From assembly GCF_036588685.1 (NCBI RefSeq), contig NC_086382.1, positions 44,729,552-44,793,551 of the forward strand: a stretch of DNA of 64,000 bases, read 5' to 3'. The position numbers were made by a program, and so were the translations under genes. Positions 16,481 through 64,000 of the stretch are shown here, one piece after another (position 1 is the first letter of the stretch; the number at the start of each line of letters is the position of its first letter). Source of the stretch: Mytilus trossulus (Eukaryota). The notes below the pieces were generated by a model. It saw only the letters and a program-made list of their open reading frames with translations. It was not told where the DNA came from and ran no database searches.

Positions 16481-16642
16481 TAAAAACACATCACCATCAA
16501 CAAAACACAATTTTGTCATGAATTCATCTGCTTCCTTTGTTTAATATTCACATATACAAAGGTGAGCGACACAGGCTCTTTAGAGCCTCTAGTTAAGCTT
16601 TCACTTTACTTGGGGATAGTCCCTTCTGAGCATTTACTTTAC

Positions 16643-40200: not shown

Positions 40201-40448
40201 TCACAGGATGAATTATCTGTTTTAAATTAGGTCTCCTTCCTGGGGAGAGTGTCAAAGGTCCTTTGCCAAAAAAATTATAAACAAACATAAAAAAAAAATG
40301 GTGGTAGAAACATTTCTTTACTTTACATTGCATTTTCCTTATGAATTACATACAAATCAGAGCCTCCTAAAATCATTTGAAAATTATGCAAAAAAGCATT
40401 ACATTCATGAACGTGTCTAATTGTGGAAGCAACAGAGTAGATGAGGGG

Positions 40449-40503
40449 ATGTTGTGGGATGTAGATTTGGGAAAACTTATTGGACTGCCAATGGAAAATG
40501 AGG
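40449..40503 (+). CDS. Candidate exon 1 of the dystrophin-like gene, encoding MLWDVDLGKLIGLPMENE plus one extra nucleotide (phase-1 donor G|GTATAT).
   Basis: This ORF segment starts MLW, as vertebrate dystrophin Dp427m does (MLWWEEVEDCY). The only GT in this reading frame that gives the phase 1 required by exon 2 is at 40504. Joined to exon 2 it reads ...MENE-D-EREDVQKK. In-frame upstream ATGs at 40386 and 40407 (with a stop at 40368) leave the true start ambiguous. The donor is weak. Confidence 0.3.
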
Positions 40504-41706
40504 GTATATTGGATAAATAAAAATAATAAAATGCTGCAACAGTAAGAACATATTTTTGTATTAAATATTAAACAAACGGCTGCAGAATTTTATTTTATCT
40601 GTCTGCTTTTACTATCTTGCTGAGAATACAGCTCTTCAAGATGTGAAGACATGACATAAATTCAGGCTCAAAATGGATTCATTTAGTTTGACTCATGAAT
40701 CAACAATCATATTCGTCCATAGAATTAATTGTTACTGCTGAGTTAATTGATAACCAACAGAAGTTATAAGTATACCCATAAGAGAAAACTATTAAAAAAA
40801 ATAGCCTTGAACTGTTGGACAAGGGAATTGTAAATATATCATGAGAAAAACCATAAATACTTTTAAATTTTAATGTAGTTTTAAATCCTATAAATCATAC
40901 TTTTTAAGGAGGGTTTTTAAGTCATAATTTATGAAAGAATTAAAGCAATGAAAGTAACAATTCTTTAATTTGAAATGATTACTTTGCTTTTTGTTAGATA
41001 TGAATATTTTTAAATCATACTATAAGTAAAAGATATGGTACATTATCCTTATTAAAGAATCATGACTTTAATGGGAAAACTTGATTTTGGAAAACACTAA
41101 CAGAAAACAAGGACAAGTTTGTTTTTAGGATCTTGACTATCCATCAGAGTCTTGCACTGTCCGTATTTAAACAGGAAACAAGGAAAGACTGCAACAACCT
41201 TTACATAAAGATTTTTCTGAATGGTTCAATTTAAAACATGTTAAAATTCGATGTCTTTGATAATTACTTGAAAAATACACTTTCAAAGATACTTCTATTC
41301 CAGTTTACTAAATATTCTGACCTGAAACTCAATGGTAAAACAAGATCCTGAACTATCTCTTTTTTTCGGACAAGTGCATGTTAATATTGTAAAATACAAA
41401 AAAAATGAATGCAGAAATGATATTGATATTAATAATTTAACAGACAACAAATTATCTTAGTCATCTCAGAAAAACTTGCTGCCATCCTTGTCAAAAATTA
41501 TAGATGGGAGTTCAATAATGATAAATCTTGTAAAGTCCTACAGGGACAGTGGGGATATGTTTGCAGTGATGTGTTGCAGCGTGGAGTAAAAAACGTGGGA
41601 TTTCAGACATAATATTGGTCTCACTACTTCCCCAATCCATTTCCCTTATCTTATTATCACTTCCAAATCATCGTATAATTCATTTAGAATCTCTTGTGTG
41701 TTTCAG

Positions 41707-41768
41707 ATGAACGTGAAGATGTCCAAAAGAAGACATTTACCAAATGGATCAATTCACAGTTGTCAAAG
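41707..41768 (+). CDS. DMD-like: Dystrophin-like exon 2, the start of the CH1 domain: (D)EREDVQKKTFTKWINSQLSK.
   Basis: Acceptor tttcag at 41701-41706 and donor AAG|GTACAT. The peptide is near-identical to human dystrophin EREDVQKKTFTKWVNAQFSK. Confidence 0.85.
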
Positions 41769-42336
41769 GTACATTTAAGAATTATAAGTCATTCTTTGAA
41801 AAATTCGCTGTAAGTGGAAATTGGTGAAACATGACATATTACACAAGTACTAATGGGACAAGTCAAAATAATGATGTAATGTAACACATACTTTGTGTGG
41901 TCTAAAAGAGTCCAAATACAAAGACATTTATCATAAATGTTTTTTAACTATGAAAGAAAACAAGGTCATAACTAGGGGAAAACTAGTTTTTTTCATAATA
42001 GTTTTTGATAAATAATTTAGCCTAAAAATTGGTTGAATTATCAGATTTTTTTTTCTGAAGTTATTAATTGAATGGTATCATTATCAAAATCATCAAAATT
42101 CATTGCAATATCCAATGACAATAGTCCAAAGATTTACCTACTGTTGCCTGTAGGCCAAACACCAAACAAAAATGTTTGTCTTGGAAACAGCACATTTCAT
42201 CTATCTATACAATTCCAAATTCAAATGACCATATCATAGCTAATAGTATTTAAAAAAAAATGTATATTCATGTTATAAGAGTAAAAGAAATAAATGTAGC
42301 AGCAAGTAATAGGTTCATGCGTTTTACTTTTTGCAG

Positions 42337-42429
42337 GCCAGCAGACCAACCTTAAACAACTTGTTCACAGATCTCAAAGATGGCACCCACCTACTATCAT
42401 TGTTGGAGGTTCTCAGTGGATTGTCATTG
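42337..42429 (+). CDS. DMD-like: Dystrophin-like exon 3: ASRPTLNNLFTDLKDGTHLLSLLEVLSGLSL.
   Basis: Acceptor ttgcag, donor TTG|GTTAGT, phase 0/0, 93 nt. It aligns to dystrophin [31 protein letters not shown]. Confidence 0.85.
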
Positions 42430-42516
42430 GTTAGTTCATACATGTTTTCTGTTACAATATAAACAAGATGGCTAATTATGAAAAATACTCTGTTTAAAAT
42501 TTACCAGGGTTGAGTT

Positions 42517-42644
42517 CAATATCGTAGCAGCTACGTAGCGGCTACGTAGCTGCTATCAATATCTATGTAGCAGCTAGTCTGTAGCTACACTTTCAATAGC
42601 CAAAATCTACGTAGCACTACGTAGCAGCTACAATATTGAACGCA
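42517..42644. repeat. Palindromic element of about 128 bp built from self-complementary GCTACGTAGC cores, with the outer inverted ends gttcaatat...atattgaac.
   Basis: ttgagttcaatatcgtagcagctacgtagcggctacgtagctgct...ctacgtagcactacgtagcagctacaatattgaacgcag. It has strong hairpin or cruciform potential. It lies in the intron about 90 bp downstream of dystrophin-like exon 3. Confidence 0.7.
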
Positions 42645-43235
42645 GCCCAGTATATGATCTAGTTTGCTTGAATCAAATTACTACACACTTTTCAATTTTG
42701 TTTGGATTGGTAAATGCTCAATTGTATCATACCATTCAATGGAAAGTAGCATCAGTTTTGATGTCGAGTATTGAGTGTACTTAAGTTTTACATTTCCAAT
42801 CCAAAGTTCAAATCTCTGTACAGAGAATACCATATCCTTTCTTTCCTTTGATTATAATCTATGGAGGTGTGAAGTAGAAGATAAATGTGATTTATCATAT
42901 GCAAATTAATATTACAACATAAAATATAAAATTCAGACAATTTTTGTTTGTTTTGGGATATTTTATGTTTATCCCATACTTAAATAGAATTAACATTTGT
43001 GGATTTTTTAGCAAATTTATTTGAATCCAGGCATTCAAATTTCAACACTAAATATAAATTATGTACTTTGAAATCTAACATTTAAGCTCCTTCACATTAA
43101 GTGTGGGAGGTATGGAGGATTCACTTTGTTGGTCTGTCTCTCTGTCCATCTGTCTATCTTTTTCATTTTAATCTCACTGTATAAGATTATAGAGTATGCA
43201 GTCATTTCAATTGAAATTTTATAGTGCTTCTTTCA

Positions 43236-43385
43236 TTTTTGAGGCCCTTTATAGCTTGCTGTTTGGTGTAAGGCTCTGTGTTTCAGACCATACTTTGACC
43301 TATAATTGTTTACTTTTACAAATTGTGACTTAGATGGAGAGTTGTCTCATTTGCACTCATCCCACGTCTTCTTATATTTATATAT
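43236..43385. mobile_element. One copy of a dispersed SINE-like family of about 150 bp (...ggccctttatagcttgctgtt...ggagagttgtctcattggcactcat.ccaca.cttctt). Related copies lie at 23130-23265, 46125-46240 (partial, with an internal duplication), 52940-53085 and 62860-63010.
   Basis: The head motif (ctttatagcttgctgtt / ttttatagctgactatg) and tail motif (ggagagttgtctcattggca[ac]tc[ac]t.ccacatcttctt) are shared among five loci in the same orientation. Confidence 0.7.
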
Positions 43386-43822
43386 ACAATATTAAGAAGA
43401 TTTGCAGGCATTTTACAAGTAAAATTACAAAAATACCAAGCTTTCAGGAAAATTAAACATGGAAAGTCCCAGATCAAATGGGAAAATCAAAATCATGAGA
43501 TTTTGCCACACATCAAACAAATGGAAAACAACTGTAATATTCCTGACTAGGTATATAAGGATTGGCTTATGTAGGAGATGTTGGAAATACCTGGTTTTAA
43601 AGCTAGCTAAACCTCTCACTTGTGAATTGGATTATTATTGTTATTTTTAAGATTCATAATGTCAACTGACTTGAATTCACTCAATAATAACCAATGTTGA
43701 AAGAATTAAGTGAACTTTTTTTATCAAGTTCAATTTCTTTATTCTGTTTGTTGTTTTGGACTAAATTTTAGAAGTTATAAAAAAATTACCAATTCTAATG
43801 TCATATACAGTAAGAACATTTC

Positions 43823-44560
43823 ATGCATTGTTGTTTGAAATTCTTGGTTGGTTTTTGGAATAATCATATTTTATCAGGTATATTGTGGTGCATTGTTGTT
43901 TGAAATTCTTGATTTGTTTTTGGAATAATCATATTTCATTAGGTAAGTTGTGGTGCATTGCTGTTTGAAATTCTTAGTTGGTTTTTGAAATAATCATATT
44001 TCATCAGGTAAGTTGGTCCGAGACCACCATTGCCGTCCCTTGATTTTCATTGTTCACAAATATAGTCCCTAGTGTTGACAGTGGGTTACTTGCCATTAAT
44101 TTTTATACCCCTTCCAAATTTTTTTCTCCATGTTTAATTTCTCAAATTGCAAGTAGGGGGTGAAATTACACTGTAAAAAAAATTGGGTCCAGAATTTTAA
44201 AGGAAAGTAGTGATTTGGTCCAGCTGAAAAAGGTTTAAAATAGCACATCGGATGCTGTCAAAAGATTTAAAAGACGCCCTAAACATAAAATTGTCCATAT
44301 TTTGAGTTAGAGGCCATGAAGTTTTCTATAATTTTGATATAATTTGTCCCAAAAGTAGTACAACACACTAAATGTTTCGTTGAGAAAGGGCAGGTGGGAT
44401 TTTTTTAATTTTCATTTATGTTCTAAAAGAAATGCACTATGAAATAATTGTGGTCTCGGACCAGTTGTGGTGCATTGTTGTTTGAAATTCTTGGTTGATT
44501 TTTGAAATAATTATATATCATTAGGTATATTGTGGTGCATTGTTGTTTGGATATGTTGTT
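43823..44560. repeat. Minisatellite of about 64 bp (cattgttgtttgaaattcttggttggtttttggaataatcatatttcatcaggtaagttgtggtg). Three copies lie at 43823-44014, the array is interrupted by an insertion, and it resumes at 44463 with about 1.5 more copies.
   Basis: Direct reading of successive units. The array continues cleanly on the far side of the insertion, agttgtggtgcattgttgtttgaaattcttggttgatttttgaaataattatat... Confidence 0.85.
44015..44462. mobile_element. MITE of about 448 bp with perfect 13-bp TIRs (ggtccgagaccac / gtggtctcggacc), inserted into the 64-bp minisatellite with a putative 4-bp target-site duplication, AGTT.
   Basis: The left TIR at 44015-44027 and the right TIR at 44450-44462 are exact reverse complements. 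'agtt' sits immediately outside both ends (44011-44014 and 44463-44466). The uninterrupted repeat unit reads ...ggtaagttgtggtg..., so the insertion point lies between agtt and gtgg. The interior is non-coding. Confidence 0.75.
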
Positions 44561-45095
44561 GGTCTTTATAGTCATATTTACATTGAGGGATGGCAGTATT
44601 TGGCTTATAATAGATTAGATGGTTGCTTTCCAAAAGTTTTTTTCAGATCGTCCAAACTTAAAAATGAGAGTTAATGAAAATATGGAGCTGTGGTATGATT
44701 TCTGATGAGAAAGCTTTCAACAGAGTTTAACTGATGAAGATATAAGCAACTATATATAGGTTACAATACAGCCTTAAACAACTAGAAAAACCCTTTCAGT
44801 ATAACCAGCTATAAAAGGCCATGACATGAAAAATGTGAACTCAAAAGAGAAAACTGACAGCCTAATTTTTCACAACAATATTCTAAAAACAAAAATGACA
44901 GACATAAACCAACTGCAACCATTGAATTACTACAGGCTCCTGACTTTCTTACACTCCATTAAGCTTCAGGGCAGTCATATTGATTAGTTACTTGGTTGTT
45001 ACAGAAGAGACAACAACACAACGGATTTCCTCATTTAGTAATTATAGATGTATTCTAAAGAAATAAATAGTACTTTGAGGTCTTTTGTTTGTTTT

Positions 45096-45185
45096 GATAG
45101 TGGCCGAGTGGTCTGAGAAGTTAAACTACTGTAGCATAGCTTGTCAACACTGAGGTTTTGAGCATGAATCCTGCCTGTAGCAGGT
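45096..45185 (+). ncRNA. tRNA-like sequence, most likely the tRNA-derived head of a SINE or a tRNA pseudogene. It carries Pol III A-box-like (TGGCCGAGTGG) and B-box-like (GCATGAATCCTGCC) motifs.
   Basis: gatagtGGCCGAGTGGTCTGAGaag...gagCATGAATCCTGCCtgtagcagg. The D-loop-like GAGTGGTCT motif and T-loop-like GAATCC motif are about 60 nt apart. It does not fold into a canonical cloverleaf by eye, since the T-stem is not complementary, so a functional tRNA is unlikely. Confidence 0.3.
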
Positions 45186-45966
45186 GCACTCAATTCAAAT
45201 CTTAATTGACTTAGGATTGTCAGTTTTCCTACTGAAGGTCTATAGTTATCTCCAGGCACTTCCTCCACTGATTAAAACTGACTACCACTAAAAAGCATAA
45301 TAGTATTGAAAGTGGTGTTAAATACCAATAACCAAATCAAATCATAATGAGTAGATGATTGCTTTATAATTTTGCTAGATTTGCAGACCCTTACCTTTAA
45401 AAACCTGCAAAAGGGTTGTTTTTTCCAAGAAAATGTGGCCCCAAACTTGTAGTGATAGTTTTGATACATAGCTTTTACCATTTCAGTTTGAGTATTAAAT
45501 ACATAGTTCATTCCTTTCAATTTCATACTAATTCAGCCACAAATATGGTTCTTTCTTCTAATGGTTATCCTGTTGGTCACTGCATCGGGCAGGCTTCTGA
45601 TTGTGTTTTACTTGTACAACATATGGCCTAGATAAGCTAAGGATAGGTTTGTCTTCATGTAAACTGGTTTAGACCCATCACTTTTTGTGGCTGTACCAAC
45701 TCTGGTTACAAGTGCTGTTCCTTGTTCTTCGTTTGAATGAAATTGATAAGGGAGATAATAAAAAAAAATTACGCCTCCCAGTTTCTGGTGTTGATGGTTG
45801 ATTTAGTGTTTTATAACTTCCTATGTTTCTGGTCCTATATCCTGTATATGTGTTATCATCTTCACAATTATGAATATTATGGCATTATTATAGAATTGAA
45901 ATAAAATATAGAATTTCTTAGTTAATTATAGCAAGAAGAAAATTATTGCATTTTTTATATTTTCAG

Positions 45967-46047
45967 AAAAGAGAGAAGGGAAGATTAAGAGTTCATCATA
46001 TAAACAATGTAAACCAGTCTATTGCTGTCCTCAGTAACAATTATAAT
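45967..46047 (+). CDS. DMD-like: Dystrophin-like exon 4: KREKGRLRVHHINNVNQSIAVLSNNYN.
   Basis: Acceptor tttcag, donor AAT|GTAAGT, 81 nt. It aligns to dystrophin PKEKGSTRVHALNNVNKALRVLQNNN. Confidence 0.85.
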
Positions 46048-48022
46048 GTAAGTAGTAAATGTAGAAAGTTCATAACATAAATAAATATGTTTAAACTAAA
46101 TGTAGAAAGTTTTACAGGGACCTATAGCAGATAATTTCTGTGCCACTTGGTTTCTTCTGGAGAGCTGTTAATTTCTGTGTCACTTTGTTTCTTCTGGAGA
46201 GTTGTCTCATTGGCAATCCTACCACATCTTCTTTTGGGTACTTAAAGTCAAATTATAGAGCAATCCATTTAAAACACCTGAAATACAAAACATTTGACTG
46301 TTTAATAGTGAACCATTAGAATACCTATGGTTTATTGGTGGGATACTAATTTTTTATAGGACTTCTTACAGAGGTATAGAATGATCTCTGAATTAAGTAA
46401 TCATTTAAAAACTTATTATCAGTTTATTTGATAAAAGTAATGATTGAAAGTGTGGAGTAGGATAAGATATATAATAACAATTGTATTTTAAAGTGTATGA
46501 AAAATTTGTTCCAGAATTGATCTCTTGTGTTTTAGCTACTGTTGATTCATTTATTTTTAGAGGGTACCAACTTTTGTGGTTTCAGGAAAACTTGCTTATT
46601 CGTGGATACTTAGTTTTGTGGTTTTGGCAAAATCTGCATACATTCTTTAAGAAAATTTGTAATTCCTTGAATATCTAAAGATTTTTGATTCCCCTTTACC
46701 CAAATAATCCATGTAATATTAGTATCAAATGAGTATTGATGAATCCACATTTATGCCAATAAACAAAATGGTTGAATTGGAAACAGTTCTTCCAGATTTT
46801 GAAATTTAAAACTGCAAAGAAACCATATTTGAATGATATATTGCAATTTTAATTTTAAAAAAGTCAGTTAACACAAAGTAAATGAGGAAACAAATATATC
46901 AGGGAAAAACGTATTTGCCGAAACTCAATTTAGTAAGGAAAACCAGCTTCATTAGTAGCAAATAAGGTCATTCACAACACAGAACGACATCCTGTTGTTG
47001 TATCCGAGACAATTAAAGATGATTCACCAGGCTACAAAATTGTCTGAAATTGTGCATTTCCTTTCTATGGCATATTAAATAGGAGAAAAGAGTTGTAATT
47101 TATATCCAATTGTCATTGTAACATTATGTCAGTGGTTATAGAACTATTGTAATTGATCAATTATTTTTCAGCTGTAGTGATAAATTTTCGAATTAAAAGT
47201 AATCCTGATGATTTCGTTCTGGTTTTTATCCCAACAAATGACAGCTATATCAGAATTTATGGCAGCTGTTTTTTGTTGATTTTACTAGTAAATGATCATA
47301 CATGCATAATAAGTATAAATTTGATTTTTGTATGGCCATACATGCATATTATGAGTTAATCTAAAAAATGTTGAACTCCTTCTTTTATTTTCAATAATGT
47401 AAATCATAAATCTATGAGTATGTTGCTTAAAAAAAAATATTCCGCAATATGGAAGATCTCATTCTGCATTTGTCTCCATAAGATGGTGAAAGGCCTGTAA
47501 GTTGATCATTAAGACATTATGTATTAGATTCTAATTAGATACAAATCAGTGCTATACAAACATCTGAAGGACCTGGATATTTTATACAGATCTAGAATAA
47601 GATATAAGTACAGGATAATGAGAAATCAATCACCCAGGGAATTAATCACTAATTAAAAAGCTGCTATAACTAATGATAATTGATTGACTGGAATGCACCA
47701 GGCTTCTGCCAGGAGAGATTTGGTTAAGTATCCTCGTAATAGGTTAATTTATGGTTCTCAATGCTCTTCATCTTTGTACCTTATTTGGCCTGTTTCATTG
47801 TTTTTATTGATATTTTGCAGACAAAACCACCATCCGGCATACAACATTTTTAACATGGTTTCTATGATGATTTTATTGCCATTTATGTAACAATCCAGAA
47901 AATCTCTTTGGATGATAAATTTGTTTAGTGTTGTTTTAATTTTTGAACAGTGTACAGGATGTTATAAGCAGAAATATTTTGTAGAATTCCCTAAATTTGA
48001 TAATTTTCTGTTGATTTTAATT

Positions 48023-48045
48023 GGGGGGGGGGGGGGGGGGTATTT
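48023..48045. repeat. Poly-G homopolymer run of about 23 bp.
   Basis: aattgggggggggggggggggggggtattt, read directly. Confidence 0.95.
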
Positions 48046-50783
48046 ATCAAACCATATAGATTTTTTTTTCTTCACAAGACCGAGGACAATTGATGTTTAC
48101 AAATTAATACATGTAATGAATAGCAGATATCTCTTTAAAAATTCTCTCAGTTCCACAGACAACACATACATACAAGCTTCTACTAACGAAATCTCCATTT
48201 GAAGCTAATGTGTTTAGAAATCTCTTATGTCATTACACCTTTCCTATATTGCCACAAACATACAAGTACTTTTAAGGCAACTTATAAATATGGCATAGGT
48301 AGAATCATATGTCAGTACACCTTTCCTATATTGCCACAAACATACAAGTAATTTTAAGGCAACTTATGAATATTGCATAGGCAAAATCATAGATGTAATA
48401 CCCACATCTATGGTTAAATGAAACTCTACATTTAAAAGAGCAGGCAAACCTATATAGATTTTTAAGCAGCAGCCCAACTTTTAAAAATTCAAGCTGGAAT
48501 CTTGTCAGAATGATAAATAGAACACTTATTGAAGAGAAGTACTTTGGGATGATTTTTTACGGGAAATCTTGTATTATTTTCTGTCTACACAAGATCAGAT
48601 ATATCAACAATGAGAATTGTATTTGTTATGAAATTGAAAATTCATTATCTCTCTCGGTAGGGGTTCTTACTTCTATCATTTGTTTTAGATTTATTGATTT
48701 ACAATACAGATACAGATAAATCGAGAGTAAATAATTAAATGTGCCTTTTAGATATTTTTGGACTTAAGATAAAATATTATGTTATAAAACTGTACACTTT
48801 ATTCGATACTATCTCCTTTCAAGAAATGTTTAGGTTTTAATTTTAATCTTTTTGGATGATAGTGCAATTTTGGTTGACACAATTCACTTTTGATAGTTTT
48901 ACCGACAGATGATCTTTCCCGTATCTTTAAGGCCTAGGTTTGAAAGTGGACATCTGCTTTTTAATGTGGGAAAAATGATTGAGAATTTAGTCTTAGGATT
49001 ATGTAAAGTAGGCTGAAGTTCTTGCAGTTCACTTGCACAGGGTCTTCCCTTGAATCTAAACATTTTTTTTTAAAATTTGATAAGCATTTACAGTGTATGC
49101 TCTTCTTGGATATTTCCAAACTGTATGAGTTTTTAACGCGAAGTAAAAGTTAACGTAAGCACAGCATTTGGCTTTTAATTTAAAGTAACATTCAATAATG
49201 TAATGACAGCACTAATTATTTCAAACTTTAAACAACAGACAAAAAATGTGAGTTTTGTACATTTTGTAGCAGAATTTTACAACCAAATAAAACAGCATTA
49301 TTTTTTTTATTTATAATTATTTTGAGCCTGATGCATTGTTGGCCACACAACATAACAAATACATTTTCAGTCATATTGTCTCTTGTTTACAAATGCATAA
49401 AAAGAGATATTGGGTATATACTTTATCAACATATAATATATATAGATAAAACACCAGATAATTGAATCTTAAATATTTAACAGGTCATTTTATGTTTAAC
49501 TGATTTAATTTAAGTAAATGACATGAAATTTTGACAATACTTATTGTAACCACACAGAAAGGTAAATGTCCTGCAAGTACTTATCGTAGGAGCCGTAAGA
49601 TTGAAATTTTGTCACTGATGTTTGCATGTCAAACTTCTCAGGTGTCATGGCTTATCCTTGTAAACATGCAAATGAAGCGACCTAGTTTGCTGACCAAATT
49701 TCAGTGATATATATGTATATATTTATATGCATGCATGCAGTGTTTTTTAACTTAACAAGTTCATTGAGGTGAATATAAAGTTTACTGGATAGGTATTTGG
49801 TGTCAGTTTGTAAATTTAGGCTAATTGACTCAAGCAACACTTATGATACTTTGTCATTAGTATTAGATGGAAAAAAAAGGATCAAATTAAATCTCGTATA
49901 TGCACCAATTATGAATGAAGAGTAACCATTATAACTTAGTTTTTATAAATAACTTCTTTTCGAGAACAAATTAAATGAAAGACAAATAAAACATTAAACA
50001 AGGGAACATTGAAATTTTAGTATCTGTCCATCCATCAAACTTGTAAGTACTTTAAAGTCAACATGTCTTGGACAAATTTTAATAACTTTTTAATGAGAGG
50101 TTTATATTTGCAATATACAAATAAAGTCTTAAGTGGTGCCAATAGAATATTGTTACTGGAGTCAGGCATCTTGAAATATAAATTGTGTGAAAACTTGTCT
50201 TGTTAATTGTCTCAGGACTACATTTCTTGATGGATTGTTAGATAAACCAAACATGCAGGTCCCCCCAAAAATGAAACATTTGTTTGTCTTCTTTGTTTAA
50301 TATAGATTTGCATCTTTTGTGTTCTATTTAACACCTCACTAAGTTACCTCTTTAGGAAGCAGTTATGTATTACTTTTTAATACAAAAATTGCAACATTGT
50401 AAAAATCATCCCCTAATCAGTAAAATCAGTAAAATGAGTTTATAAGTGTATTTCTTATAGGTGAAGATAGTTTAGTCAAAGTCAAAGAAGGTATAATACA
50501 TACAAACACATACTGTTCTTTTCTGTATTGTTATTGGTGTGAATGAAAGATCTGAAGCCTTCCTCTGGGTGCAGGATTTTATCTCTGTGTTGAAAACCCA
50601 TTGGCAGTTTTTCTGATGTTTTTGGCTTTTTGGTTGTGTTTTTGTCACTTTGATACATTCCCCATTTCCGTCCTCCACTTTGTTAAAAAAATAGATTTCC
50701 AACAGCAAGTAATGAATTAACTTTTTGCAGTATTGAATGAAAATTTGAGCATACAAATTTTTTTCATTTTTCTTTCATTTTAG

Positions 50784-50876
50784 ATCAAGTTAGTAAACAT
50801 CAGTAGTAATGATATAGTTGATGGGAATCAGAAATTGACTCTTGGTTTGGTATGGAGCATCATCTTACATTGGCAG
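50784..50876 (+). CDS. DMD-like: Dystrophin-like exon 5: [31 protein letters not shown].
   Basis: Acceptor ttttag, donor CAG|GTTAGT, 93 nt. It aligns to dystrophin [31 protein letters not shown], the conserved CH1 core. Confidence 0.9.
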
Positions 50877-51231
50877 GTTAGTATAGTTGGATCGATGGAA
50901 ACGAGGAGGAATACAATTTATCCATATTATAACAGAATATGGAGATAAGGACATCATGCAGTGAAGAGTATTAACTAATGCAATATAGTGACACATAGAT
51001 GTTCTTTTGAGATTGCATTCACTATTATATTAGTATTTTTTAATCTAACCTTAATATATTTTTATACTCGTCTAGCCAATATTGCTATAAAGACCAATAA
51101 AAAGGTGGTAGTAAAGAATTAGCAAATAGTATTGAAAGTGGTGTTAAACACAACAAACAAAAACATCAATCTTTTTAATTATTTATTTTTGTTTTTCCAA
51201 GAATCTCAAACTATCATACTTTATATTTTAG

Positions 51232-51323
51232 GTGAAAGATGTTATGAAAGATTTAATGGAGGACTTACGACAGACAAATCTGGAGAGAACCTTACTAAAC
51301 TGGTGTCGACAGACTACAGAGAG
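51232..51323 (+). CDS. DMD-like: Dystrophin-like exon 6a: [30 protein letters not shown](R).
   Basis: Acceptor ttttag, donor GAG|GTAGTG, 92 nt, ends in phase 2. It aligns to dystrophin [31 protein letters not shown]. Confidence 0.85.
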
Positions 51324-51847
51324 GTAGTGTGTTTATTTTAATTTTTATTTATTTAAACAGCCTGAGGCTACGCTTGGTTTTCCTCAACATATATATTTAT
51401 ACAGATTCACAATTAACAAAGATTTTGTTTTTGTTTACAAACATGTTTACACAAGACAAGACAATATGTATAGGACAAGACATACGAATGTAATTGGACT
51501 ACACACCCATACATTGTTTATGTATTGAAGAAATCAGCTTTTTCATTGTCTGTTCTTATTTTATTCCTATTTTTTCTGTAGAATCAGATACAGTATTTAA
51601 CCATGTGTGGAACACTGATATTTTTTTACTCTAGAATCTCAAGATTTTTTAGTTAAAGAAAAATAATTGAGTTATCTCCCCTAGGATACAAATGTTCCAA
51701 AACTTTTTTTTTTTCAAATTCAGATATCAAACCTGTCGATATATAATATACTGAACATTTTAAACTCAAAAATACTAAGATTTTTAAATTCAAGAAAAAG
51801 ATATTTAGTTATCTTGTCTAGAAGTGTTTTAATTTTTTTAATTTCAG

Positions 51848-51928
51848 GTACCATGATGTAGATATTAGAAACTTTACAAATAGTTGGAGAGATGGACTTG
51901 GATTTAATGCCCTCTTGCATCACTTTAG
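51848..51928 (+). CDS. DMD-like: Dystrophin-like exon 6b, the start of CH2: (R)[26 protein letters not shown](R).
   Basis: Acceptor atttcag, donor TAG|GTAAGA, 81 nt, phase 2 to 2. It aligns to dystrophin [27 protein letters not shown]. In vertebrates this segment and the previous one form a single exon. Confidence 0.85.
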
Positions 51929-53142
51929 GTAAGAATACACGTTTTTAAGAGTTCAACTATACATTTATATATTTGCAAGGTAAAATTTAAATCTCTATAT
52001 GTTGTGTAAAGAAGATGTTGGTCTAAACTTTCAAAAACAAAGAATTTTTTAACACTATGGAAAATTGAAGTTTATATCATAATATTTAGAAAAATATTTG
52101 TTTAAGTATGTATTATCGAGCTTTGTTTCTAGCTACGGGGTGTCAAATTTTATAATAGTTATACATGGAAAAGATATTTTCGTGAAAATAGAAAGAAAAC
52201 TAAATGATACAAAAGCTCTTATAATGTCTTGCAGAATTACAATAAAATTAGAATCACTGTAATTATTTTCTTGCTCTCAAATAAAATAGGAAGACTTACT
52301 TTTTATTCCTTATGAAATTAAATTATTTGATTTCTCTTCCCTAATATGGCCTAATTAATAAATAACAAGCTACAAAACATGATTTTTTTGGCATTTAGAG
52401 GGATAAAAAGGTTAAAAAGGTTAAAAAGCTAATTTTATTATGGACTCAAAATTTTTATAATCAAGTCTAGACTAGTTGTTTTTCTGCTGTTTTACAATCT
52501 TACATGGTAGAAGACCCTTGTTCAACCTTAAATTTAAGTTGTGAATACCTGTAGTAAAACTTAGATCCTCTCCATAAAATTCAGTCATAATCAATAAAGC
52601 TGGCTAGACATTTCAGCTTTTGCACTTGTGTGTGTCAAAACTATTTAATAATGGTATTTTGGGATATGCAAGTACTAGTTAGATAATTTTAAACTGTGAA
52701 GTAATTGAACAAATATTTACAGATTATGTTGACTAAATAATTACAGAATGACAAATTTACCTGTTGCAACAAAATGCTTTTCTTGAAAAGCCTTCATCTG
52801 AAATTTTAGCATTCAGAACTTTGGAAAACCAAAAATAGAAAACTTGAGAGTACAAAAGTGAAAAGTAAAAATATAAATAATATATTTCTTGTTTTATATT
52901 TTGACCTAGTTGATTTTAGGAATATTTGAAACACAAGACCTTAAGTTATTTTTTGGGGGTCTTTATAGCTTGCTGTTCAGTGTGGGCCAAGGCTCCATGT
53001 TGAAGACCGTACTTTGAACTGTAATGGTTCACTTTGGATGGAGAGTTGTCATTGGCACTCATTCCACATATTTTTTTATCTTTTTAGTTGAAAGAATATA
53101 TACATATAGTATTCAATTTAATGTATTAATGAACTTTTTCAG

Positions 53143-53258
53143 ACCCGACTTATTTATATATGAAGATGTGTTGAACATGGACAATGAGACAAGACTTAAC
53201 CACGCTTTCAATGTGGCTGAGAAATCACTGGAAATTGACAGATTATTGGATGCCGAAG
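53143..53258 (+). CDS. DMD-like: Dystrophin-like exon 7: (R)PDLFIYEDVLNMDNETRLNHAFNVAEKSLEIDRLLDAE.
   Basis: Acceptor ttttcag, donor GAAG|GTAAAA, 116 nt. It aligns to dystrophin [41 protein letters not shown]. Confidence 0.85.
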
Positions 53259-56142
53259 GTAAAATTTGGAATGTTTTGTCCTTTCTGGCAAATGATTTTA
53301 TATTCATGCAAAAAGAAAAACATTTTGAATGTTTCTTGTTTTTTTTCAGAATTAAAGCCTATAGAAATATTTATAAAGGTTATATTTAGATAAAGTAGTT
53401 ACATGTCTAGTTCTGTATTTCTTTTGAATGTATTCTTGTTCAGCTCAAGATAATTTAGCATTCAAAGATGTGTCATGAACTTGTTCCTTTATTTGACCTT
53501 CAGACATCTATAAATAACTATTATTTGCATTTTTTCCAATCAGCATAAAATACATGTAAAATATCTAGAATAAATTTCTGGAATTGAAATACACCTTGTT
53601 TTTTTATGTTTTTAATGGAAATCACACATGAAATAGTAATTACACAGGGATAGGAATTCCATTATTTATTTTGAAGAGACAGCTTTTCATTAAAAAGTTA
53701 TCTCTATGTGGAAAGAATTGCCGAATCGCCAGAAATAAAAGAAAATGCTTCCAACAAATAAAAGATATTTTATTGCTATCAGACATGTATTTGATGCTTG
53801 AATTTGTAACCACATTTCTAAGAAATATTACGATAAATACATGCAATTAATTACACTGAAGCTATGTAAATTCTTTGGAAAGTCATCATCCTTGATGTTG
53901 GCAAAAAGCAAGATCAATTTTTTTGTATATATCCATAATTCCAGAGGAAGATAATTATGCTTATTCCAACAACTTTGAAAATTACTATAAGACAATAATA
54001 AAGAGCACCAAAAACAAGGTAAAGCTAGGTAGATAAAGCAAGCAGTCCTCATGGCCATTCTACTGGAAGGAATTTTTAACCGTTTTTCTCTTCAAAATTC
54101 ATCAAAAAACGATGAAAATGAAATTGAAATTATAATAATGTATCATGTAAAATATGCAAGGATCAAACATTAAAAAATAACATAGAGAAGATTTATAGAC
54201 AAAAGAACTAAATTTTTTCCTCAAAACATGATCTAGTTAAAGAAAGTACATGGGTATATTAAAGAAGTTGGGCTAAAGTCTGAACATATACATACTATAA
54301 ATTAACCATAAACCCAGAACAGTGAAGAAGCACTTCGAAAATCAGTTAAATAAGTTGTTTGATAAAGCCATTATAGTCATTATACAAAGTAAGAGTAATT
54401 TTCATTCCATTTCACCATGGTTATAGACAATATCTGTTGATTGACAGATTCATCTTCAGGAATAGATGTTGATTTTCTGGGTCTGTTTTATAGGTTAATG
54501 GCAGAAAACACAGTTTTCATAACATATTAATTACAAAATGACAATCATAATTATTTGTTTGAAATAACTATGTTAATTATATCATGAGTATAAGACATTA
54601 ACCTGAATTTAGAGGTAAAAAGCCGATATATTTAAAGGTTAATTGACGGAAAAATAAATTTGACCTAATTTATAACAATATGATAATAGATTAATATTTG
54701 TTTGAAATGCCCCTGGTGGGTTAATATAGTTATCAATATATTGAATTGTTTGTAAAAGTGAACATTTGACATATCAATCCTTTTAGGAAAATAGAATCAA
54801 CAGTTTTGGGTTTTAGATCAATGCCAGTTATGTTGCCCTCATGATGGGCTTTTCATGTTTTAAAATTGTAAGATATAGATTAATAGTCTTAAAATGTTTG
54901 TTTTAAAGTCATTGTATTTAACTAATGAAATAACACTCTACTTATCTATTAAAAAGGTGAATCTCCTATCCTTTTAAAAAATGACACACTTTCGTGTTGC
55001 CCATTTGTTTTGTAGATTTTTGAAATTTTGATTGATTGTTGTAAATTTATAGGTTTGGCATTTATAAAACTTGGCTTAACCTGGCTAAACCTACCATATA
55101 ATTGTACAAAGTGCCTGTACCAAAGTCAAGGACCTGTTATATGACCTTGACCTCATTTTAAGTCAGGTGGTCAAGGTGAAGATTTCAGGATAAAGGATGT
55201 TACTCAGTAATCATACATGATATGACAATAATATATGAAATGGTTGCATAAGAGCATGTGTTCACCTCATATTTTTCAATGACATTGGTCTAAAATTAAT
55301 ACACCAGTGGTCAGTACAAGTTATCGAGTTGAGGTCTTTCCTCCCTAGCTTAATATGATAGTTCATCTATATTTTGCATTTTTGTGTCCATATACGAAGT
55401 CAATCTGACATAGCTCATGAAATTTTGACCTAAATTTTTGTGTGTTCCATTGATTAGGTTAATTTATTTGGATAAGGTCTATTCCTCTTTCTTTTTGCAC
55501 ATTAAGTCAACTGTATTTGGTTTGTGGATTAGTTGAGAGGAAAATAAGTAGTCTGTCTGTTTCATAAAGCCTTGACCTCATTTTATGTACCTAACCCTTT
55601 ATGTTTGTTATTTTAAAATGTGAAGCTCAAAAATCTTTTATTACAAGATGAAAAAAATACTGTTTGCATATAAATTATATGAACATTAAAATGTGAAACT
55701 GGCAAATTACATTTGACCTGTAAGTGTAAAGTTTGCTTGAGAGTTATTGCCCTTAAAAATGTTCCAAATTCAGCAGGTAAGTTTAGTATTTCAGTGTTCT
55801 CTTCTTTATACCATACTCTTCAAAGAAAATATTTCTTTACCAAAATGTACAAATTTAGACATTCTAAAGCATAATGCTAACATAACTGTTTAGATGCTCT
55901 GATTAAAAGCATAAAATATGTACAATGGCATATTTGCTCTGGCTGAAGTTTCGATTGTTCTAATGATTTTTTTTCTCTCAGGAATAGGTATATTAGATTA
56001 TGATGTAATAAAATTCTGCAGATATAATGTAGCAAATTACAAATTGCATGTTTTTAAAAGGAAAAAGGAGATGAAGACATTTTTTTCACAAATAAAAGTA
56101 CAAAATAATGAATTATGTTTTTAATTATTTTATTTTTTTCAG

Positions 56143-56330
56143 ATGTGAATGTAGATAACCCAGATAAAAAGTCAGTGATGATGTACTTGATGTGTTTCTT
56201 CCAAGTTTTACCACATTCAAACATATCAGAAACATGTGACATAGAATTACCTCCCCCTACACCACAATCTGCCTTAATACCAACACCAACTGAAAAATTC
56301 CATTTTGCTGAACATGTCAAGAAATCAGAG
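56143..56330 (+). CDS. DMD-like: Dystrophin-like exon 8, the end of CH2 and start of the linker: DVNVDNPDKKSVMMYLMCFFQVLPHSNISETCDIELPPPTPQSALIPTPTEKFHFAEHVKKSE.
   Basis: Acceptor tttttcag, donor GAG|GTAAAC, 188 nt, ends in phase 0. It aligns to dystrophin [36 protein letters not shown]... Downstream exons were not identified before the window ends. Confidence 0.85.
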
Positions 56331-56679
56331 GTAAACTTATGCATTTTATTTATATGCTATCACCTTTGTTGTGATATAAGCATACTTGAACTAAAAAAGG
56401 TTTTAGTATTGTTGAATGCAATGGATATGGTGAAAAAAGTTTTGACAGGGCATTACAATAGAAAGCAATTTGCAATAGGAGGTGAACACATCTATATTTA
56501 TTCAAAAGATTCTCAATGGAATGATATAGGCTTTATGGACTGATTGACAGCATAATAGGAGTAAAAAGCTTGTTTTAATGTACAAAGAGGGAAACCATAA
56601 AATAATATAACAATCAAACAACAGATTTTGAATTGCAATGCCCTTTTCAACATTGTCTTAGTATTTCATTAATGTGCTA

Positions 56680-56880
56680 GCATAGGTTGAATCAGGGGGG
56701 GGGGGCCTGGGGGGCCCAGGCCCCCCCCCCCCTTTCAGGGGAAAAATTTGTTTGATTATATAGGGAATCATTGAAGCATGACTGAAGCGGGCCCCCTCTT
56801 ATGTCAGTCAGAGGGCCCCCCTTATGAAAAGTTCTGGATCCGCCACTGGCTAGGGACCAGATTACCCAAAGTTATGTCAT
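56680..56880. mobile_element. One copy of a dispersed repeat family with long internal G-run/C-run palindromes and GGATCC/GGTTGGAAC motifs. Other copies or fragments lie at 30560-30640, 32045-32185, 57810-57970 and, in opposite orientation, 60480-60850.
   Basis: 56692-56745 reads atcagggggggggggcctggggggcccaggcccccccccccctttcagggg. 56800-56870 (...gagggccccccttatgaaaagttctggatccgccactggc) is the reverse complement of 60490-60545 (ggatccagaacttttcctaagggggggccaactgactgacctaaggggggcc). 32060-32180 parallels 60720-60840 (ggggggttcctggggttggaaccctcc...ggttggaacaccctc...aaatggctg). 57926-57950 is a C25 run. Confidence 0.7.
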
Positions 56881-59800
56881 GACTATTATCAAATGTCACC
56901 TAGTAGTTAGTTTAAAGCTTTAATAATAGAGAATTTCAATGGCAAAGAAATTTAATTTTGGGCTCCATTTAGCTTCAGTGGGAGCGGTTATTATTTTTCT
57001 TGTTCAGGGGATGGTCTTAGTTTTGTGAATTAAAAATGTTGTTTGTTAGAAAATGTGCAATTTGGATTTCTTTGTACTTTGAGAGAATAAAGAACAATGA
57101 ACCAGTCTATCTGTTCTCATGTAGACATCCAAACATCTTTTTAAGTAAACCCATCCAAACTAAACATTATTTATGTTCTATTGTAAAAACATTATAACAA
57201 ATTGAGTTTTAAATATAGACAAACTAAAATAAAATCTGATATCAATTCACCAAATGAAAACAATGAAAAATGTATTTATCTCATTATTGTGATGATATGC
57301 AAAAACTAATAGGTAATAAAGGTGTAATAAAGACATACATGATTATTTAAATATTCATGATATATTTATGTACAGGACAATTATTATTATTGTTATTAAT
57401 GAAAATATTATGTCTGGTTGCCAACATGTCGATATTGAAACCTTGATACATAAGAGAAAGAAAACAAATCTGTATTTGATGTTTATGATTTTTGGCAATA
57501 ACCATCATAAACACAACTCATCTATAGAATAAAACTCGCTTAGATTAGGTTTATTATTCTCTTAAGTTTTTAGTTCAAATTTACTCCTCAAAAACTTGCT
57601 TCGCTTTGAAGGTGAAGACTATGAATCTGTGAACATTGCTTATATCATATGCTCTGATGTCTCATTTGCTTTATTTACATGGTACTGATTTCTCTTGTAT
57701 TCTATGAGGTTTTCTTGTAATATACAGTTTTGTTGTCTCATGCTTTGTTGAATATTCTGCATTTATTCTTCTTTTCTATGAAATAAGATTAAATTATTGA
57801 AGATGCATACCCATAGCCAGGGGGGTTCGGACGAACCCCCCTTGAAATCAAATAAGCACTGTTAAAGTCAATGTTCTGTTCGAATTTTGACTGTTAAAGT
57901 CGAGTTTGTGAGTCTAACAAACCCCCCCCCCCCCCCCCCCCCCCCTGGAAATTCCTGGCTAGGGGCCTGATATCTATCATTGATTACTAAAAGCTATCTG
58001 TTTGCATTAACAACGGTGTCATTGTGTAAGTTAGATACACCTGATAATACTTATGCTCATCATTAACGTGTGTGACACATTTGCCACTGGACGTTTAAGC
58101 AAACAACAATCAATCAATCTAATATCCTCATGGGTGTATATCTAACATGTAGTATTACTTGTCCTGGATTTCTATGTTCTGTAGGAGACGGTTGTCAGTC
58201 TTTCATTCAAAGCAACATTGTAGATCTGTCCTAGTTGTTTTATAGTTCACTTTCTCATCTGCAACAGAAATCCTCAATGAATAAAGCAACTTATATATTA
58301 CCTAACTAAAATATTTACTAAAGAACAAAATGGAAAAATTTAAGGGTTTTATCATTGAAAATTTAAATTTTATAATTGGACAAGCTTTAATATACCCTTT
58401 ACAGTGAGATGTGTTTTGAAAGCATATTTTTTTAAATGAATTCTAAAAAAAACAACATTTTAACTTTATAATCAGTGGACATACAAGGATAGGCTATTAG
58501 TTTGAAGGAAGTTTTTTTAGGATCAATTACATAATACAATGTATTGAAGTGGCTATTTTTGTATCATGAATTATCAGTTTTACAAAATTAGCTTTATTTC
58601 CAGTGGGTCTATCACCACATGGTATACATTGATTATATTTGAACAATAACATTCTTTGACTTGGTCCTTGTTGCTCTTTTATAAGTTATATCTTATCTAT
58701 ATTCAAGTGTAGGACCTTGAATGGGTATGAAGAAAAGAAACAATGTTTACATAAATAGCCCCATTGTTCCTGATCATACCTTGGTGTTAGGCGTGGGAGA
58801 AAAGGGTAGTCCAGGGATCACCTGTAGTACGTTTATAGATCAGACCTATAGTATAGGTGCGTTATCAGCGATCAAACTGTTAATGTAAACAATACCCATG
58901 ATTAAAATCAATGATTCCCAACATTTTTACATGTTTTATTTACTGAAGATTTAAAAATAGAAAAAGTTTAAAAAAAATTGCAATTAAAATGAATTAAAAA
59001 AATTAAGCAAAAAATTATTGCAAAAAAATTTTAAATCGGTTATTGAAAATAATAAATAATTTTTTATCAGATATATGTAACGAGATAATTGTTATCTGTC
59101 CTCATTTAGATAGTAAAGAAAAGACGGAAATGCTTGAATGAATGATATTACTATAATAAGTATTGTGTGAAAAAAAGACTCTAATATGTTATGTCAACAC
59201 AATGTAATAATCTACCTATGATTGAATAATTGTGTCGCCTAATTTTTGGTAATAGCGGTAATAGTCGTCACACTGTTACCTGTCTCACCTGTATAACTTC
59301 TGATATGTAAACATCTACCATTCATGTGTCTATCAGCTGGGCACTTAATCGTACCTTCGTTTCTCAGGAATGGTGGATAGCCATTATTTATAAATACATA
59401 TACTAGATAGCAATATTGAATATTTTTGGAGTTAACAATAACTTTGCTAAGTTCTTCATGTTGCTATGCCTCATTTAGATTGGGGCAAGATGAAATTGGA
59501 TTTCCTACTTGTGCCAATTGTTGTTCATTTGTAAATAACAATGTGTAAAACAAATGTGTGAGGTGATATTAATTAACCTAAATCCTTAAACTTGAAGGAT
59601 TTACCGATATTTCTACATTTTTCGGGAGAAATAGGGAGTTGAATATTTATATACAATTACAGGTAGGTCTAGAGATAATTAAGTTTACCAATGTTATCTG
59701 GAGATATTTAGCTTCATTTAATGTACTGCTGCAACTAAGCAACCAAATCTTAGAAATAAATGCACAGAGAAAAGTGAAAAAATATGAAAATAGAAATTTA

Positions 59801-62800
59801 TGATAATGCAGCACTAATAAAAACAAAAAATCCCCTCAAAATTCTTCAAATATCAAATTGAAGCTTCCATGTCTTAAGAGGAACAATGTGCAAATAATTC
59901 TGTCAAAGTTGTGATTAATGAAATATTAAATTTAATCTTTTCAAAATTTATTTATTATTAAACATTAATCGGAATCCTGTTTTTGCCATATTTAGAAAAA
60001 TATTTTAAGTAAGGTAGCTGACTGTTTGGAAACTGTTGATTGTTAGCTCACAGTTGGATGTTTAAACTTTATATTTCTTATATTTGTTCAACACTCTGTT
60101 TAACTGCCAATTCAATACTTTAATAAAAATTTTGCCAAAAGACTTTCTATTCTTAGGTGCTTGTCATCTTTGAAAATGTATATAGACATTCAACAGAAGT
60201 GATTAGGTCAAGTAGCACAAAATTATCTAGGACACGAAAGAATGTAATGGGCTCTTTAGTTAGAAAAATTTATGCAGAGGCATTGGCATGTGATTATATT
60301 TTACTATGCAGAATAATGAAACCTTACATCCTAATTATTGACCTTCTATCTGTGATATCACATAGATTTAATTGATAGGTATATATACCAATCAACAGCT
60401 AAGGCAATACAAGTTATAGGATCAGAACTAGTAAGATACAATGAGATAACCGAAAAGTGTTTTATTGGAATAAAGGATAGACTAATTAGATCAGTGATGG
60501 ATCCAGAACTTTTCCTAAGGGGGGGCCAACTGACTGACCTAAGGGGGGCCGCTCCAGTCATGCTTCATTGATTCCCTATATAATCAACCAAATGTTTCCC
60601 ACGAAAGGGGGGCCTCAGGATCCGCCTATGTAGATGGCCATTGAAAACATTAAAACTGAAGATTCTGAGGTTTAGCCCATAACAAGACTTGTTGTCCAGG
60701 CTGACAAATGCAATGGTGAATCCAAGAGGGGGGTTCCTGGGGTTGGAACCCTCCCCATTTTTTCATTATTGATGTTTTTGAATGGGGACAGAGGGTTGGA
60801 ACACCCTCTTTTATAAATGGCTGAATTCACCCTTGAAATGAGCAAAGTGCTAGAATGTGACACTGTCCCAACATTTGCTTTCAGAATTAGTTACTGTCCC
60901 AGATCTAGTTTCCAATTTTGGATTGTATTCCAAAGATTTTTTTTCTAAATCTCTTCTTTTCTTTCTTTCTTACAAAGCCTAACATACAATGCTGCACATC
61001 AAAGCTTTAAAACCATCAGTAGATATTTCAGTTGTTTAATGTCATATTAAATGACAAGATAGGTTGATATATTACCCTAATTTAGACCTAACTTGACAAT
61101 GCATGAGTGTAAGGTTGCATATAAATGCAACATTTATTGAAATCAAATATTCACTCTATCCTGTTGGGAAAATTACACATTGTTAGTGGGTTTTTATAAA
61201 GCAGTTTTATACACTTTCATATGGTGCAATGCTTTTAAAATTTGGAATAAGAGATAGCTAAATATTTCAATTGGAGCATATGATTGGAATAACAAAACTG
61301 TTTGCAACTAATTCTTCCATTAAAAAGATAAGCTTATAAGCATTTTGAACATGTTAATTGTGGAGTCATTTAGTTAGCATGTAATTATTACAGTAAAAAG
61401 GATTTGAATTTTTTAAGTATCTGAACATGAAACCACATGTATTAAGTCAGTCCAACATATTACAAATTTTCATTTTTGATTGTCTGACAATGGAATTCAT
61501 GGACCTCCATTTCATAAAAACATGATCAAAACAATTTCAGTGCTACCTTTTCACATTTATAGATCTTTGATTTATTACCTTTTACGCATACTTAAATGTC
61601 AAGTCATCAAATTATACTACCAAATTTGATACATGTACTTTAAAAAATAAGTTTTAAAAAACTGCATTGCATTACAATAACTCAGTAAATGCCATAGAAA
61701 TTATCAAATGAGTGTTTGATCATCTTCTTCAGCATGTTCAGTTCTCATTTTGCTGCGTTTTTTTTTTTTTTTTGTGATTGTGACCTTTCTGGAAAATTCA
61801 CTCTGGCGTCGTGTTATGTAGTTTTCTCTCTAGCAAAATATCTTTAATTTAAATTCTTCTAAAGGAGTAGGTCTCGTAAGGCCCGATTTTGGCCTGTAAT
61901 TTCAAGTTCATATAAGGAAAGATTTTAGACACTTTTTAAACACTTAAGTGTCTATTCAATTGATATTAATTAGTTTATGTGAAAGATTTTAACTTAAATA
62001 GTCATTAAAAACGCTCCAATTCGAGCTTAAATATGAAAATCTATCAAATATGTCAAAAAACATAACTTTGTAGATAGTTTTTTTGTCAAAAGTGAAAGTG
62101 GCCGCATCTGTGTCCATCCTCAACCTTTATATATATTATGTATTATCATCAAATACAACTTACATTTCAAAATTATAAAAGAACACGAATAGCCACTTTC
62201 ATTTAAGACAGAAACCGTCTAAAATTTAACTAAAATGCTAAAATTGTGAAGATTTCAGTAATTTAGCACGACTTAATGATGCTAGTACTCGATATATATG
62301 TGCATTGTATTGCCATAAACAGCCCATATTTATGTAGCAGAAGCCTGTTATTTCCAATAAAAAGCTTAAAGATTACTTTTTCACAATTTTGCAAAATTGC
62401 TTTATTTTGGGGCGAAAAAGAGGATTTACTGAACCTACTCCTTTGCTTATACACTGTAAAGTCATTATTTGAAATGACAATTATTACACAGATCATAGTG
62501 TTCTCTGTTTAAAAGATATTCCTTGGATCTGAAAAGAAATTGGACATAATGTACTGATGTTTTTGTTTATTAAGGTATAATAATAAATATTAGCCTGAAT
62601 TAGTATAAATATTGTTACAAGCTTGTTAATCCTGTGGAGTAATGCCAGATAAATAGATATTGTGTTTAAGATCAGATTTGTTCTGACCAAGGCTTTGTTA
62701 TATTACTTTAAGGTTTAATATTTGTTGCATAATGAATATTTAAATTGAACATGTTATGATTTAATTTAGTTTCAGCCAAATATTATAAAAAGTCATTGTC

Positions 62801-64000
62801 TTTTGTGTTGATATTTTTGTTAGATGTCAGTTTTGTTCCTAGTAAGGTTAAACATTTGACATTTCAGGGCCTTTTATAGCTGACTATGCGGTATGAGCTT
62901 TGCTCGTTGTTGAAGGCTGTATGGTGACCTATAGTTGTTAATTTCTTTGTTATTAGGTCTCTTGTGGAGAGTTTCTCATTCAGGTTATCATACCACATCG
63001 TCTTTTTTTACATAAAACAAACTTCTGATTTTTCGAAATTGTGCATTCTTCTGCATCTTCTATTTGCTTAAACATTTTTTTTCCAGAAATTAAAGCAATG
63101 TGCAAAAGTTAACCTAGACAAAATCTAAACTGTCACTGAGCATTAATGTTGTTACTAATTGCACTCTTAAGAAGAGAAATGAACTTCAGATCTGAAACCT
63201 TTATATTATTATGGTGGCATATTTGCTGTTCATTAATCTGATTAACCCTGCAATATGACTTTGTAATAACAATAAACAAACACAATCGGATACATCTATC
63301 TTGTAATAAACAGACTAGTGAGGGTTCAGAATTAGCATCAAATCTCTAACACATCTTTAAGACTTGTGATTACTGGGTCTTTTCAGGTTCTGGCAAGTCA
63401 GCTAGGGTTATTTCTTAAATAGTCTCCAAAATAGATAAATGTTGGCAAGTGTCAGTGAGACAACAAGGCAACACAAAGCAACAAAATAATGACATTTAAA
63501 TAAAAAAAAAAAAAATACAGAAAATTATGGAAAAGCAAGTCATTTCATGTGTGAGGATTTTGCTTGCTTTATAAAGATGATGGATCCGAATCCATAAATA
63601 CTGTGACATCAAAACTTAAAATTCATGAGTGACAAAAAACAATGATTCTGACAACTTACTTTTTAAGGTTTTTGATTTGGGACGGGAACAAAAACATTTG
63701 GCAGGAAAAACAATTTTGAAAATACTTCACACTCTCCCTGTGCATGCATTTATTAATATAGAAAACCTATTGGTAAACTATTTTTTTTTCTCGTCAGCTG
63801 GAAATTGAATTCTGAAAATATTTGTTGCTAAAATTTCAAAAATCAGTGTCTCATTTTCTCTCAAGTTTTCAATTCTATTTTGATCTTATTAAAAGTTACA
63901 TAACAGTCTGTCAAACAAAGCATTAATTGCAAAAAGCAGCTGAGATTGAACCCCATTCTCTAAAATCTTAGAGCATTGGTACCAAATAATATCATATCAT

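Follow-up and report, generated by a model that had tools for sequence, protein, structure and literature searches.

Does a 64,000-nucleotide stretch of the mussel Mytilus trossulus genome (NCBI RefSeq assembly GCF_036588685.1, contig NC_086382.1, positions 44,729,552 to 44,793,551 of the forward strand; hereafter the window) hold the beginning of a dystrophin gene, and if so, with which exons and from which start codon? An earlier note on this DNA, made from its letters alone, had proposed the 5' end of a dystrophin-like gene, with vertebrate exon 6 divided by an intron and a candidate first exon beginning with MLW. We followed up this proposal by similarity searches, by reading of exon borders and by comparison with orthologous loci. 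Our data argue with high confidence that what lies here, on the + strand, is the 5' portion of the mussel's single dystrophin/utrophin orthologue. It is an ordinary orthologue of a gene type already known, and nothing in it suggests a new kind of system.

Exons of the actin-binding domain

A tblastn search of the window with the N-terminus of human dystrophin (used only as a probe) returned collinear short matches on the + strand between 41.7 and 56.3 kb, and exon borders were then read from the sequence. The following eight exons were obtained, numbered after their vertebrate counterparts:

41707-41768, +, exon 2: 62 nt; phase 1 in, 0 out; (D)EREDVQKKTFTKWINSQLSK; start of CH1
42337-42429, +, exon 3: 93 nt; phase 0 in, 0 out
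45967-46047, +, exon 4: 81 nt; phase 0 in, 0 out
50784-50876, +, exon 5: 93 nt; phase 0 in, 0 out; 31 residues aligning to actin-binding site 2
51232-51323, +, exon 6a: 92 nt; phase 0 in, 2 out; first half of vertebrate exon 6
51848-51928, +, exon 6b: 81 nt; phase 2 in, 2 out; start of CH2
53143-53258, +, exon 7: 116 nt; phase 2 in, 1 out
56143-56330, +, exon 8: 188 nt; phase 1 in, 0 out; end of CH2 (PDKKSVMMYLMCFFQVLP) and start of the hinge

A polypyrimidine-AG acceptor precedes and a GT donor follows each of the eight exons. The outgoing phases from exon 2 to exon 8 are 0,0,0,0,2,2,1,0, and the seven introns that separate these exons measure 568, 3537, 4736, 355, 524, 1214 and 2884 bp. Spliced together, the exons form an open peptide of 268 residues, in which Pfam detects two CH domains (E=1.9e-46). 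The eight exons at 41707-56330 encode an N-terminal tandem CH1-CH2 actin-binding domain. On these points the earlier note was accurate: the exons exist at exactly the coordinates it gave, with GT/AG at every junction, a consistent series of phases and a continuous CH1-CH2 domain.

The human dystrophin (Dp427m) and utrophin domains (PDB 1DXX, 1QAG and 6M5G) have the same tandem CH1-CH2 organization and are ~59-60% identical to the mussel domain. Exon 2 contains a stretch that aligns to actin-binding site 1, and three actin-binding-site stretches, one of which reads KTFTKWINSQ, are conserved between mussel and human, with the sites as defined in the literature. When the domain was compared with all solved structures, utrophin scored 300 and 297 bits and dystrophin 290, compared with lower scores of 221 for beta-spectrin, ~212 for MACF1/plectin and 204 for alpha-actinin. 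The similarity to human dystrophin and utrophin is equal, which agrees with a gene that predates their duplication and is for this reason equidistant from both. Most invertebrates have a single dystrophin gene, older than the vertebrate dystrophin/utrophin/DRP2 split (PMC1790709).

The best matches among database proteins are fragments from molluscs: Littorina (77% identity), Batillaria (73%), Dreissena (73%) and Aplysia (named 'utrophin', 69%). Several of the mollusc relatives bear the source name dystrophin or utrophin, while the closest carry 'hypothetical' or other labels; matches named spectrin or plakin score below the family-named best matches, many of which are dystrophin or utrophin. 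The nearest full-length relative found by a HMMER search is a 3273-residue 'Dystrophin' of the limpet Patella caerulea (KAK6187729.1), 66% identical over 242 residues. It comprises CH, at least 12 spectrin repeats, WW, EF-hand_2, EF-hand_3 and ZZ, and the comparison with it is limited to the first ~280 mussel codons. In Patella vulgata the orthologue goes by the name 'utrophin isoform X1'.

The gene structure agrees with that of the vertebrate genes. The mussel exons measure 62, 93, 81, 93, 173 (=92+81), 116 and 188 nt, and their borders and phases match DMD exons 2-8. The human exons measure 62, 93, 78, 93, 173, 119 and 182 nt, which is consistent with the limits of the tblastn matches. The mussel has each of the seven vertebrate junctions from exon 2 to exon 8, in equal phase, plus one additional intron that it shares with other invertebrates and a cnidarian. 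By inspection, the exon 2 equivalent is also 62 nt long in a teleost, the spider has a 93-nt exon 3 equivalent with the same borders, and the junction and phase of exon 7 are common to mussel, the gastropod Batillaria and the teleost; mussel exon 4 exceeds the 78 nt found in human and spider by one codon. Identical junctions occur in Tegillarca, Batillaria, Lamellibrachia, Stegodyphus and Acropora, and the intron positions and phases are those that the gene already had in the ancestor shared by cnidarians and bilaterians. The mussel introns are small, 0.36-4.7 kb, as opposed to tens to hundreds of kb in human.

The same exon series, including the division of exon 6, is found in the ark clam Tegillarca granosa (KUTeg_007545; GCA_029721355.1 CM056596.1). 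Protein identity between the exons of mussel and Tegillarca ranges from 59 to 100% (exon 2, 100%; exon 5, 97%), and the tail of exon 8 is alignable as well, including DIELPP.TP.SA. Apart from one shared interspersed repeat, DNA conservation between mussel and ark clam is confined to the exons, as expected under purifying selection; around the exon 1 candidate described below, no non-coding conservation was found. The KUTeg_007545 gene model omits exons 3 and 7; both are present and intact in the Tegillarca locus (35.0-35.2 kb and 50963-51082).

Could the exons come from another member of the spectrin superfamily, such as beta-spectrin, alpha-actinin or a plakin/MACF gene? The tandem CH domain is common to all these families, with E<1e-55 against the query, and one gastropod orthologue (Littorina) has been automatically named 'alpha-actinin-4-like'. 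However, utrophin and dystrophin lead by 70-95 bits, the nearest full-length relative (Patella) has the whole dystrophin architecture, all seven intron positions and phases of exons 2-8 agree with vertebrate DMD/UTRN, and the exon 8 tail continues like that of the Tegillarca gene, where a dystrophin-type first spectrin repeat follows. An origin from another superfamily gene is therefore extremely improbable, and the dystrophin-type identity proposed by the earlier note holds against the families that might have displaced it, both by bit score and by exon borders and phases.

It is likewise highly improbable that the exons are a duplicated or truncated non-functional copy of a dystrophin 5' end. 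Such a pseudogene fragment would fit the visibility of the 5' part only: searched by tblastn with dystrophins of clam, limpet, horseshoe crab and other sources, the last 7.7 kb (56331-64000) yielded no match to exon 9 or beyond, just as the earlier note had failed to find any such exon before the window ends. Intron 8 of Tegillarca is ~8 kb long, however, so exon 9 is expected just past the window. Moreover, the eight exons are all open, with intact GT/AG and conserved phases, and they retain the protein identity to the ark clam given above, whereas the introns have no similarity. Some points nevertheless weigh against the reading as a dystrophin orthologue. The protein searches returned no dystrophin of M. 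trossulus or any other Mytilus, nor any Mytilus protein with the domain, which would also suit a pseudogene fragment; the features by which a dystrophin is defined (central rod of spectrin repeats, WW, two EF-hand regions, ZZ zinc finger and coiled-coil C-terminus) fall outside the window; and the exon junctions are predictions from sequence.

The intron within the exon 6 equivalent

The mussel differs from human by an extra phase-2 intron inside the exon 6 equivalent. This intron of 524 bp (51324-51847) follows ...CRQTTE. We compared exon 6 between the window and orthologous loci of a second bivalve, a gastropod, an annelid, a spider, a moth, a teleost and a coral (positions are those of each locus):

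Mytilus window: 92 + 81 nt, phase-2 intron
Tegillarca granosa (ark clam): phase-2 intron at the same codon
Batillaria (gastropod): phase-2 junction, donor after 10499, acceptor at 11197
Lamellibrachia (annelid): phase-2 intron at the same codon
Stegodyphus (spider): 92 + 81 nt, 56376-56467 and 58802-58882
Acropora digitifera (coral): 92 + 81 nt, 7275-7366 and 7622-7702
Ilyodon (teleost, utrophin-like): one 173-nt exon, 15832-16004
Spodoptera (moth): different, derived; boundary between exons 6b and 7 absent

In all split loci the intron breaks the codon after ...CRQ(T/S)xx, and in the 'dystrophin-like' gene of Acropora the identical 92-nt and 81-nt exons flank it. Since the phase-2 intron is common to coral, spider, annelid and molluscs, it predates the cnidarian-bilaterian split; since 92 and 81 nt add up to 173 nt, the length of the single teleost exon, vertebrate exon 6 has arisen by loss of this ancestral intron. 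The comparison thus indicates that the exon 6a/6b intron is ancestral, was later lost in the vertebrate dystrophin/utrophin lineage and is not specific to the mussel. The earlier note had described exon 6 as split by a 524-bp phase-2 intron. The coordinates, length and phase were exact; the direction of change has to be reversed, with the mussel in the ancestral state and the vertebrates fused. A literature search on intron positions in invertebrate dystrophins returned nothing specific.

The first coding exon

Exon 2 is entered in phase 1, and two upstream segments have been proposed as the first coding exon (slashes in sequences mark splice junctions):

34697-34739, +, exon 1 candidate (coding part): MARNDITSKYLKFK + G, phase-1 donor AAAG/GTAAGG; 5' untranslated region upstream
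40449-40503, +, MLW segment: MLWDVDLGKLIGLPMENE + G; open, phase-1 GT donor; unsupported as an exon

We scored all phase-1 GT donors upstream of exon 2 (n=1205) against the first-exon peptides of Tegillarca, Littorina, Aplysia, Patella, spider and tick. The site ending at 34739 ranked 1/1205, with a score of 17.5 compared with 10.7 for the runner-up. Its sequence, ATG GCA AGG AAT GAT ATT ACT TCT AAA TAT CTT AAA TTT AAA G/GTAAGG, has an in-frame TAA upstream at 34679, the Kozak context AAAGATGG and a consensus donor, and its final G completes the Asp codon found in nearly all invertebrate homologues examined. The peptide opens with 'MA', like the Tegillarca exon, and matches the first coding exons of Tegillarca, Patella, Littorina and Aplysia; the BLASTP alignment with the Patella caerulea dystrophin runs into it (SKYLKFKD versus AKYHKGKD). 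The first coding exon of Tegillarca ends in ...TTLKYLRFR/D, in phase 1 as in the mussel candidate, and lies 24 kb upstream of exon 2, compared with ~7 kb in the mussel. When the upstream sequence was shuffled 300 times, the score was attained in 9 cases; 4 of these offered an in-frame ATG too, and 0 had a GTRAG donor in addition.

We consider it fairly likely, from these similarities and signals, that 34697-34739 is the first coding exon and contains the probable translation start. It would be spliced in phase 1 over a 6967-bp intron to exon 2, and the domain would then span ~21.6 kb, versus the ~16 kb of the earlier note. Several observations count against this assignment. The peptide is short, 3% of the shuffles attain its score if no further signal is required, and scores of 17-20 also occur at two control positions in other parts of the window, which have neither an ATG nor a strong donor.

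The earlier note had instead placed the start at the MLW segment, spliced to 41707 as in vertebrate Dp427m. As it stated, an open segment with an ATG start and a phase-1 GT donor exists at 40449-40503, with an Asp codon at the junction. Dystrophin genes use several alternative first exons (PMC1790709), and a lineage-specific, unconserved one is conceivable. The homology, however, did not stand: the segment ranks 336/1205 (score -5.2) against the invertebrate first-exon peptides, to which it has no similarity, and beyond the MLW tripeptide it shares with human only acidic residues before the junction, with a local score of 20 that is unremarkable among the scanned sites. For 288 upstream ATGs an open frame leads to a phase-1 GT donor, MLW occurs twice by chance among the ATG-initiated frames of the + strand, and the donor (GAGG/GTATAT) is weak, without the +4A/+5G consensus. 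Among homologues with readable N-termini, the MLW start is confined to gnathostome dystrophins, which arose after the dystrophin/utrophin duplication. In addition, the open frame extends upstream beyond the segment and contains in-frame ATGs at 40386 and 40407, which would initiate first unless transcription starts within the 42-nt gap. The MLW first exon is thus probably wrong, and that it is the first coding exon of the gene is very unlikely. As a Dp427m-type first exon homologous to MLWWEEVEDCY, the segment at 40449-40503 was rejected; the mussel first-exon peptide at 34697-34739 is unrelated to this human sequence.

Among invertebrates, the first coding exon takes one of two recurrent forms, both of which end in phase 1 ahead of (D)EREDVQKK. 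Type A has the terminal motif ..LK[FY].K.[KR] and comprises Tegillarca TTLKYLRFR, Littorina TTLKFHKGK, Aplysia LLKFKKGR, Patella FAKYHKGK, and the spider and tick exons; it has been seen so far only in protostomes, and the mussel candidate at 34697-34739 belongs to it. Type B ends in F..[RI]I[KQ]..... and occurs in vertebrate utrophin, the crinoid Antedon, the coral Acropora, Dreissena, Nucella and a scorpion. Acropora shares the phase-1 junction before (D)E(H/R)E..., and its first coding exon is utrophin-like (FTLRIKSRS/D), a type that was not found in the mussel window. Scans for a type B exon in the 41.7 kb upstream of exon 2, and in the Tegillarca, Batillaria, Lamellibrachia and Stegodyphus loci, gave nothing above shuffle level. 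A type B exon may lie upstream of the window, in which case 34697 would not necessarily be the only or the main start. We put forward, tentatively and as a possibility we regard as doubtful, that dystrophin genes of invertebrates may have two first coding exons, both ancient and each conserved separately, which would imply two promoters.

Surroundings of the gene and its meaning

The G+C content of the window is ~30%, and the introns are AT-rich and carry ordinary mussel repeats. Both intron 3 elements that the earlier note had seen, a palindrome near 42517 and a miniature inverted-repeat transposable element (MITE) at 44015, were confirmed; the MITE-like element sits inside a 65-bp tandem array (43824-44015 and 44471-44558). 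The repeats located in the window, which include several tandem or satellite arrays upstream of the gene, are:

42507-42648, no strand, palindromic repeat cluster in intron 3: 32-nt arms, 88% complementary; nested palindromes
44014-44463, no strand, MITE-like element in intron 3: 450 bp, 18-nt terminal inverted repeats
6826-7275, tandem array: 171 bp x2.7
10268-10491, tandem array: 111 bp x2, 100% identical
14916-16401, tandem array: ~501 bp x3
16517-17670, tandem array: 61 bp x15-19, 97% matches
23797-24958, duplication: ~690 bp

At the edge of the 501-bp array, ~130 bp (14819-14954) match the Tegillarca locus at 1039-1134 and 48075-48212 with 74-77% identity, which suggests an old interspersed repeat common to pteriomorph bivalves. 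A recurring protein similarity to exon 6a at 26031-26111 on the - strand (E ~0.06-0.1) showed no nucleotide similarity (p=0.26) and was dismissed as chance. Rfam and tRNA scans found no RNA genes in the window.

The upstream neighbour of the dystrophin gene is an intronless open reading frame for 569 residues at 4379-6088 (+), the only long one in the window. Its product has two B-box zinc fingers, is 100% identical to LOC134687934 (uncharacterized, M. trossulus), which places the window on an annotated mussel chromosome, and belongs to a large TRIM-like family expanded in Mytilus, with 81% identity to copies in M. edulis and M. galloprovincialis.

By analogy with its family, the mussel CH1-CH2 domain would anchor the protein to cortical F-actin via the three conserved stretches. 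The parts encoded beyond the window, namely the spectrin-repeat rod and the WW, EF-hand and ZZ domains, would attach to the dystroglycan complex, with the C-terminal WW/EF/ZZ region contacting beta-dystroglycan; in muscle and neurons this would tie the cytoskeleton to the extracellular matrix, as family knowledge leads us to expect.

Taken together, the value of the locus is chiefly one of annotation: it provides exact exon coordinates for the actin-binding domain of a mussel dystrophin and a likely correction of its translation start. It also shows that the 173-nt exon 6 of vertebrate DMD/UTRN arose by the joining of two ancestral exons, of 92 and 81 nt, which have stayed apart in lineages from corals to mussels. 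As an instance of intron loss in a gene of medical importance, this is small, tidy and unsurprising; as a suggested reading, the exon 6a/6b intron would offer a cleanly dated loss on the vertebrate stem. If the two types of first coding exon do prove to coexist in one genome with tissue-specific use, the several promoters of vertebrate DMD/UTRN would have a far more ancient parallel.

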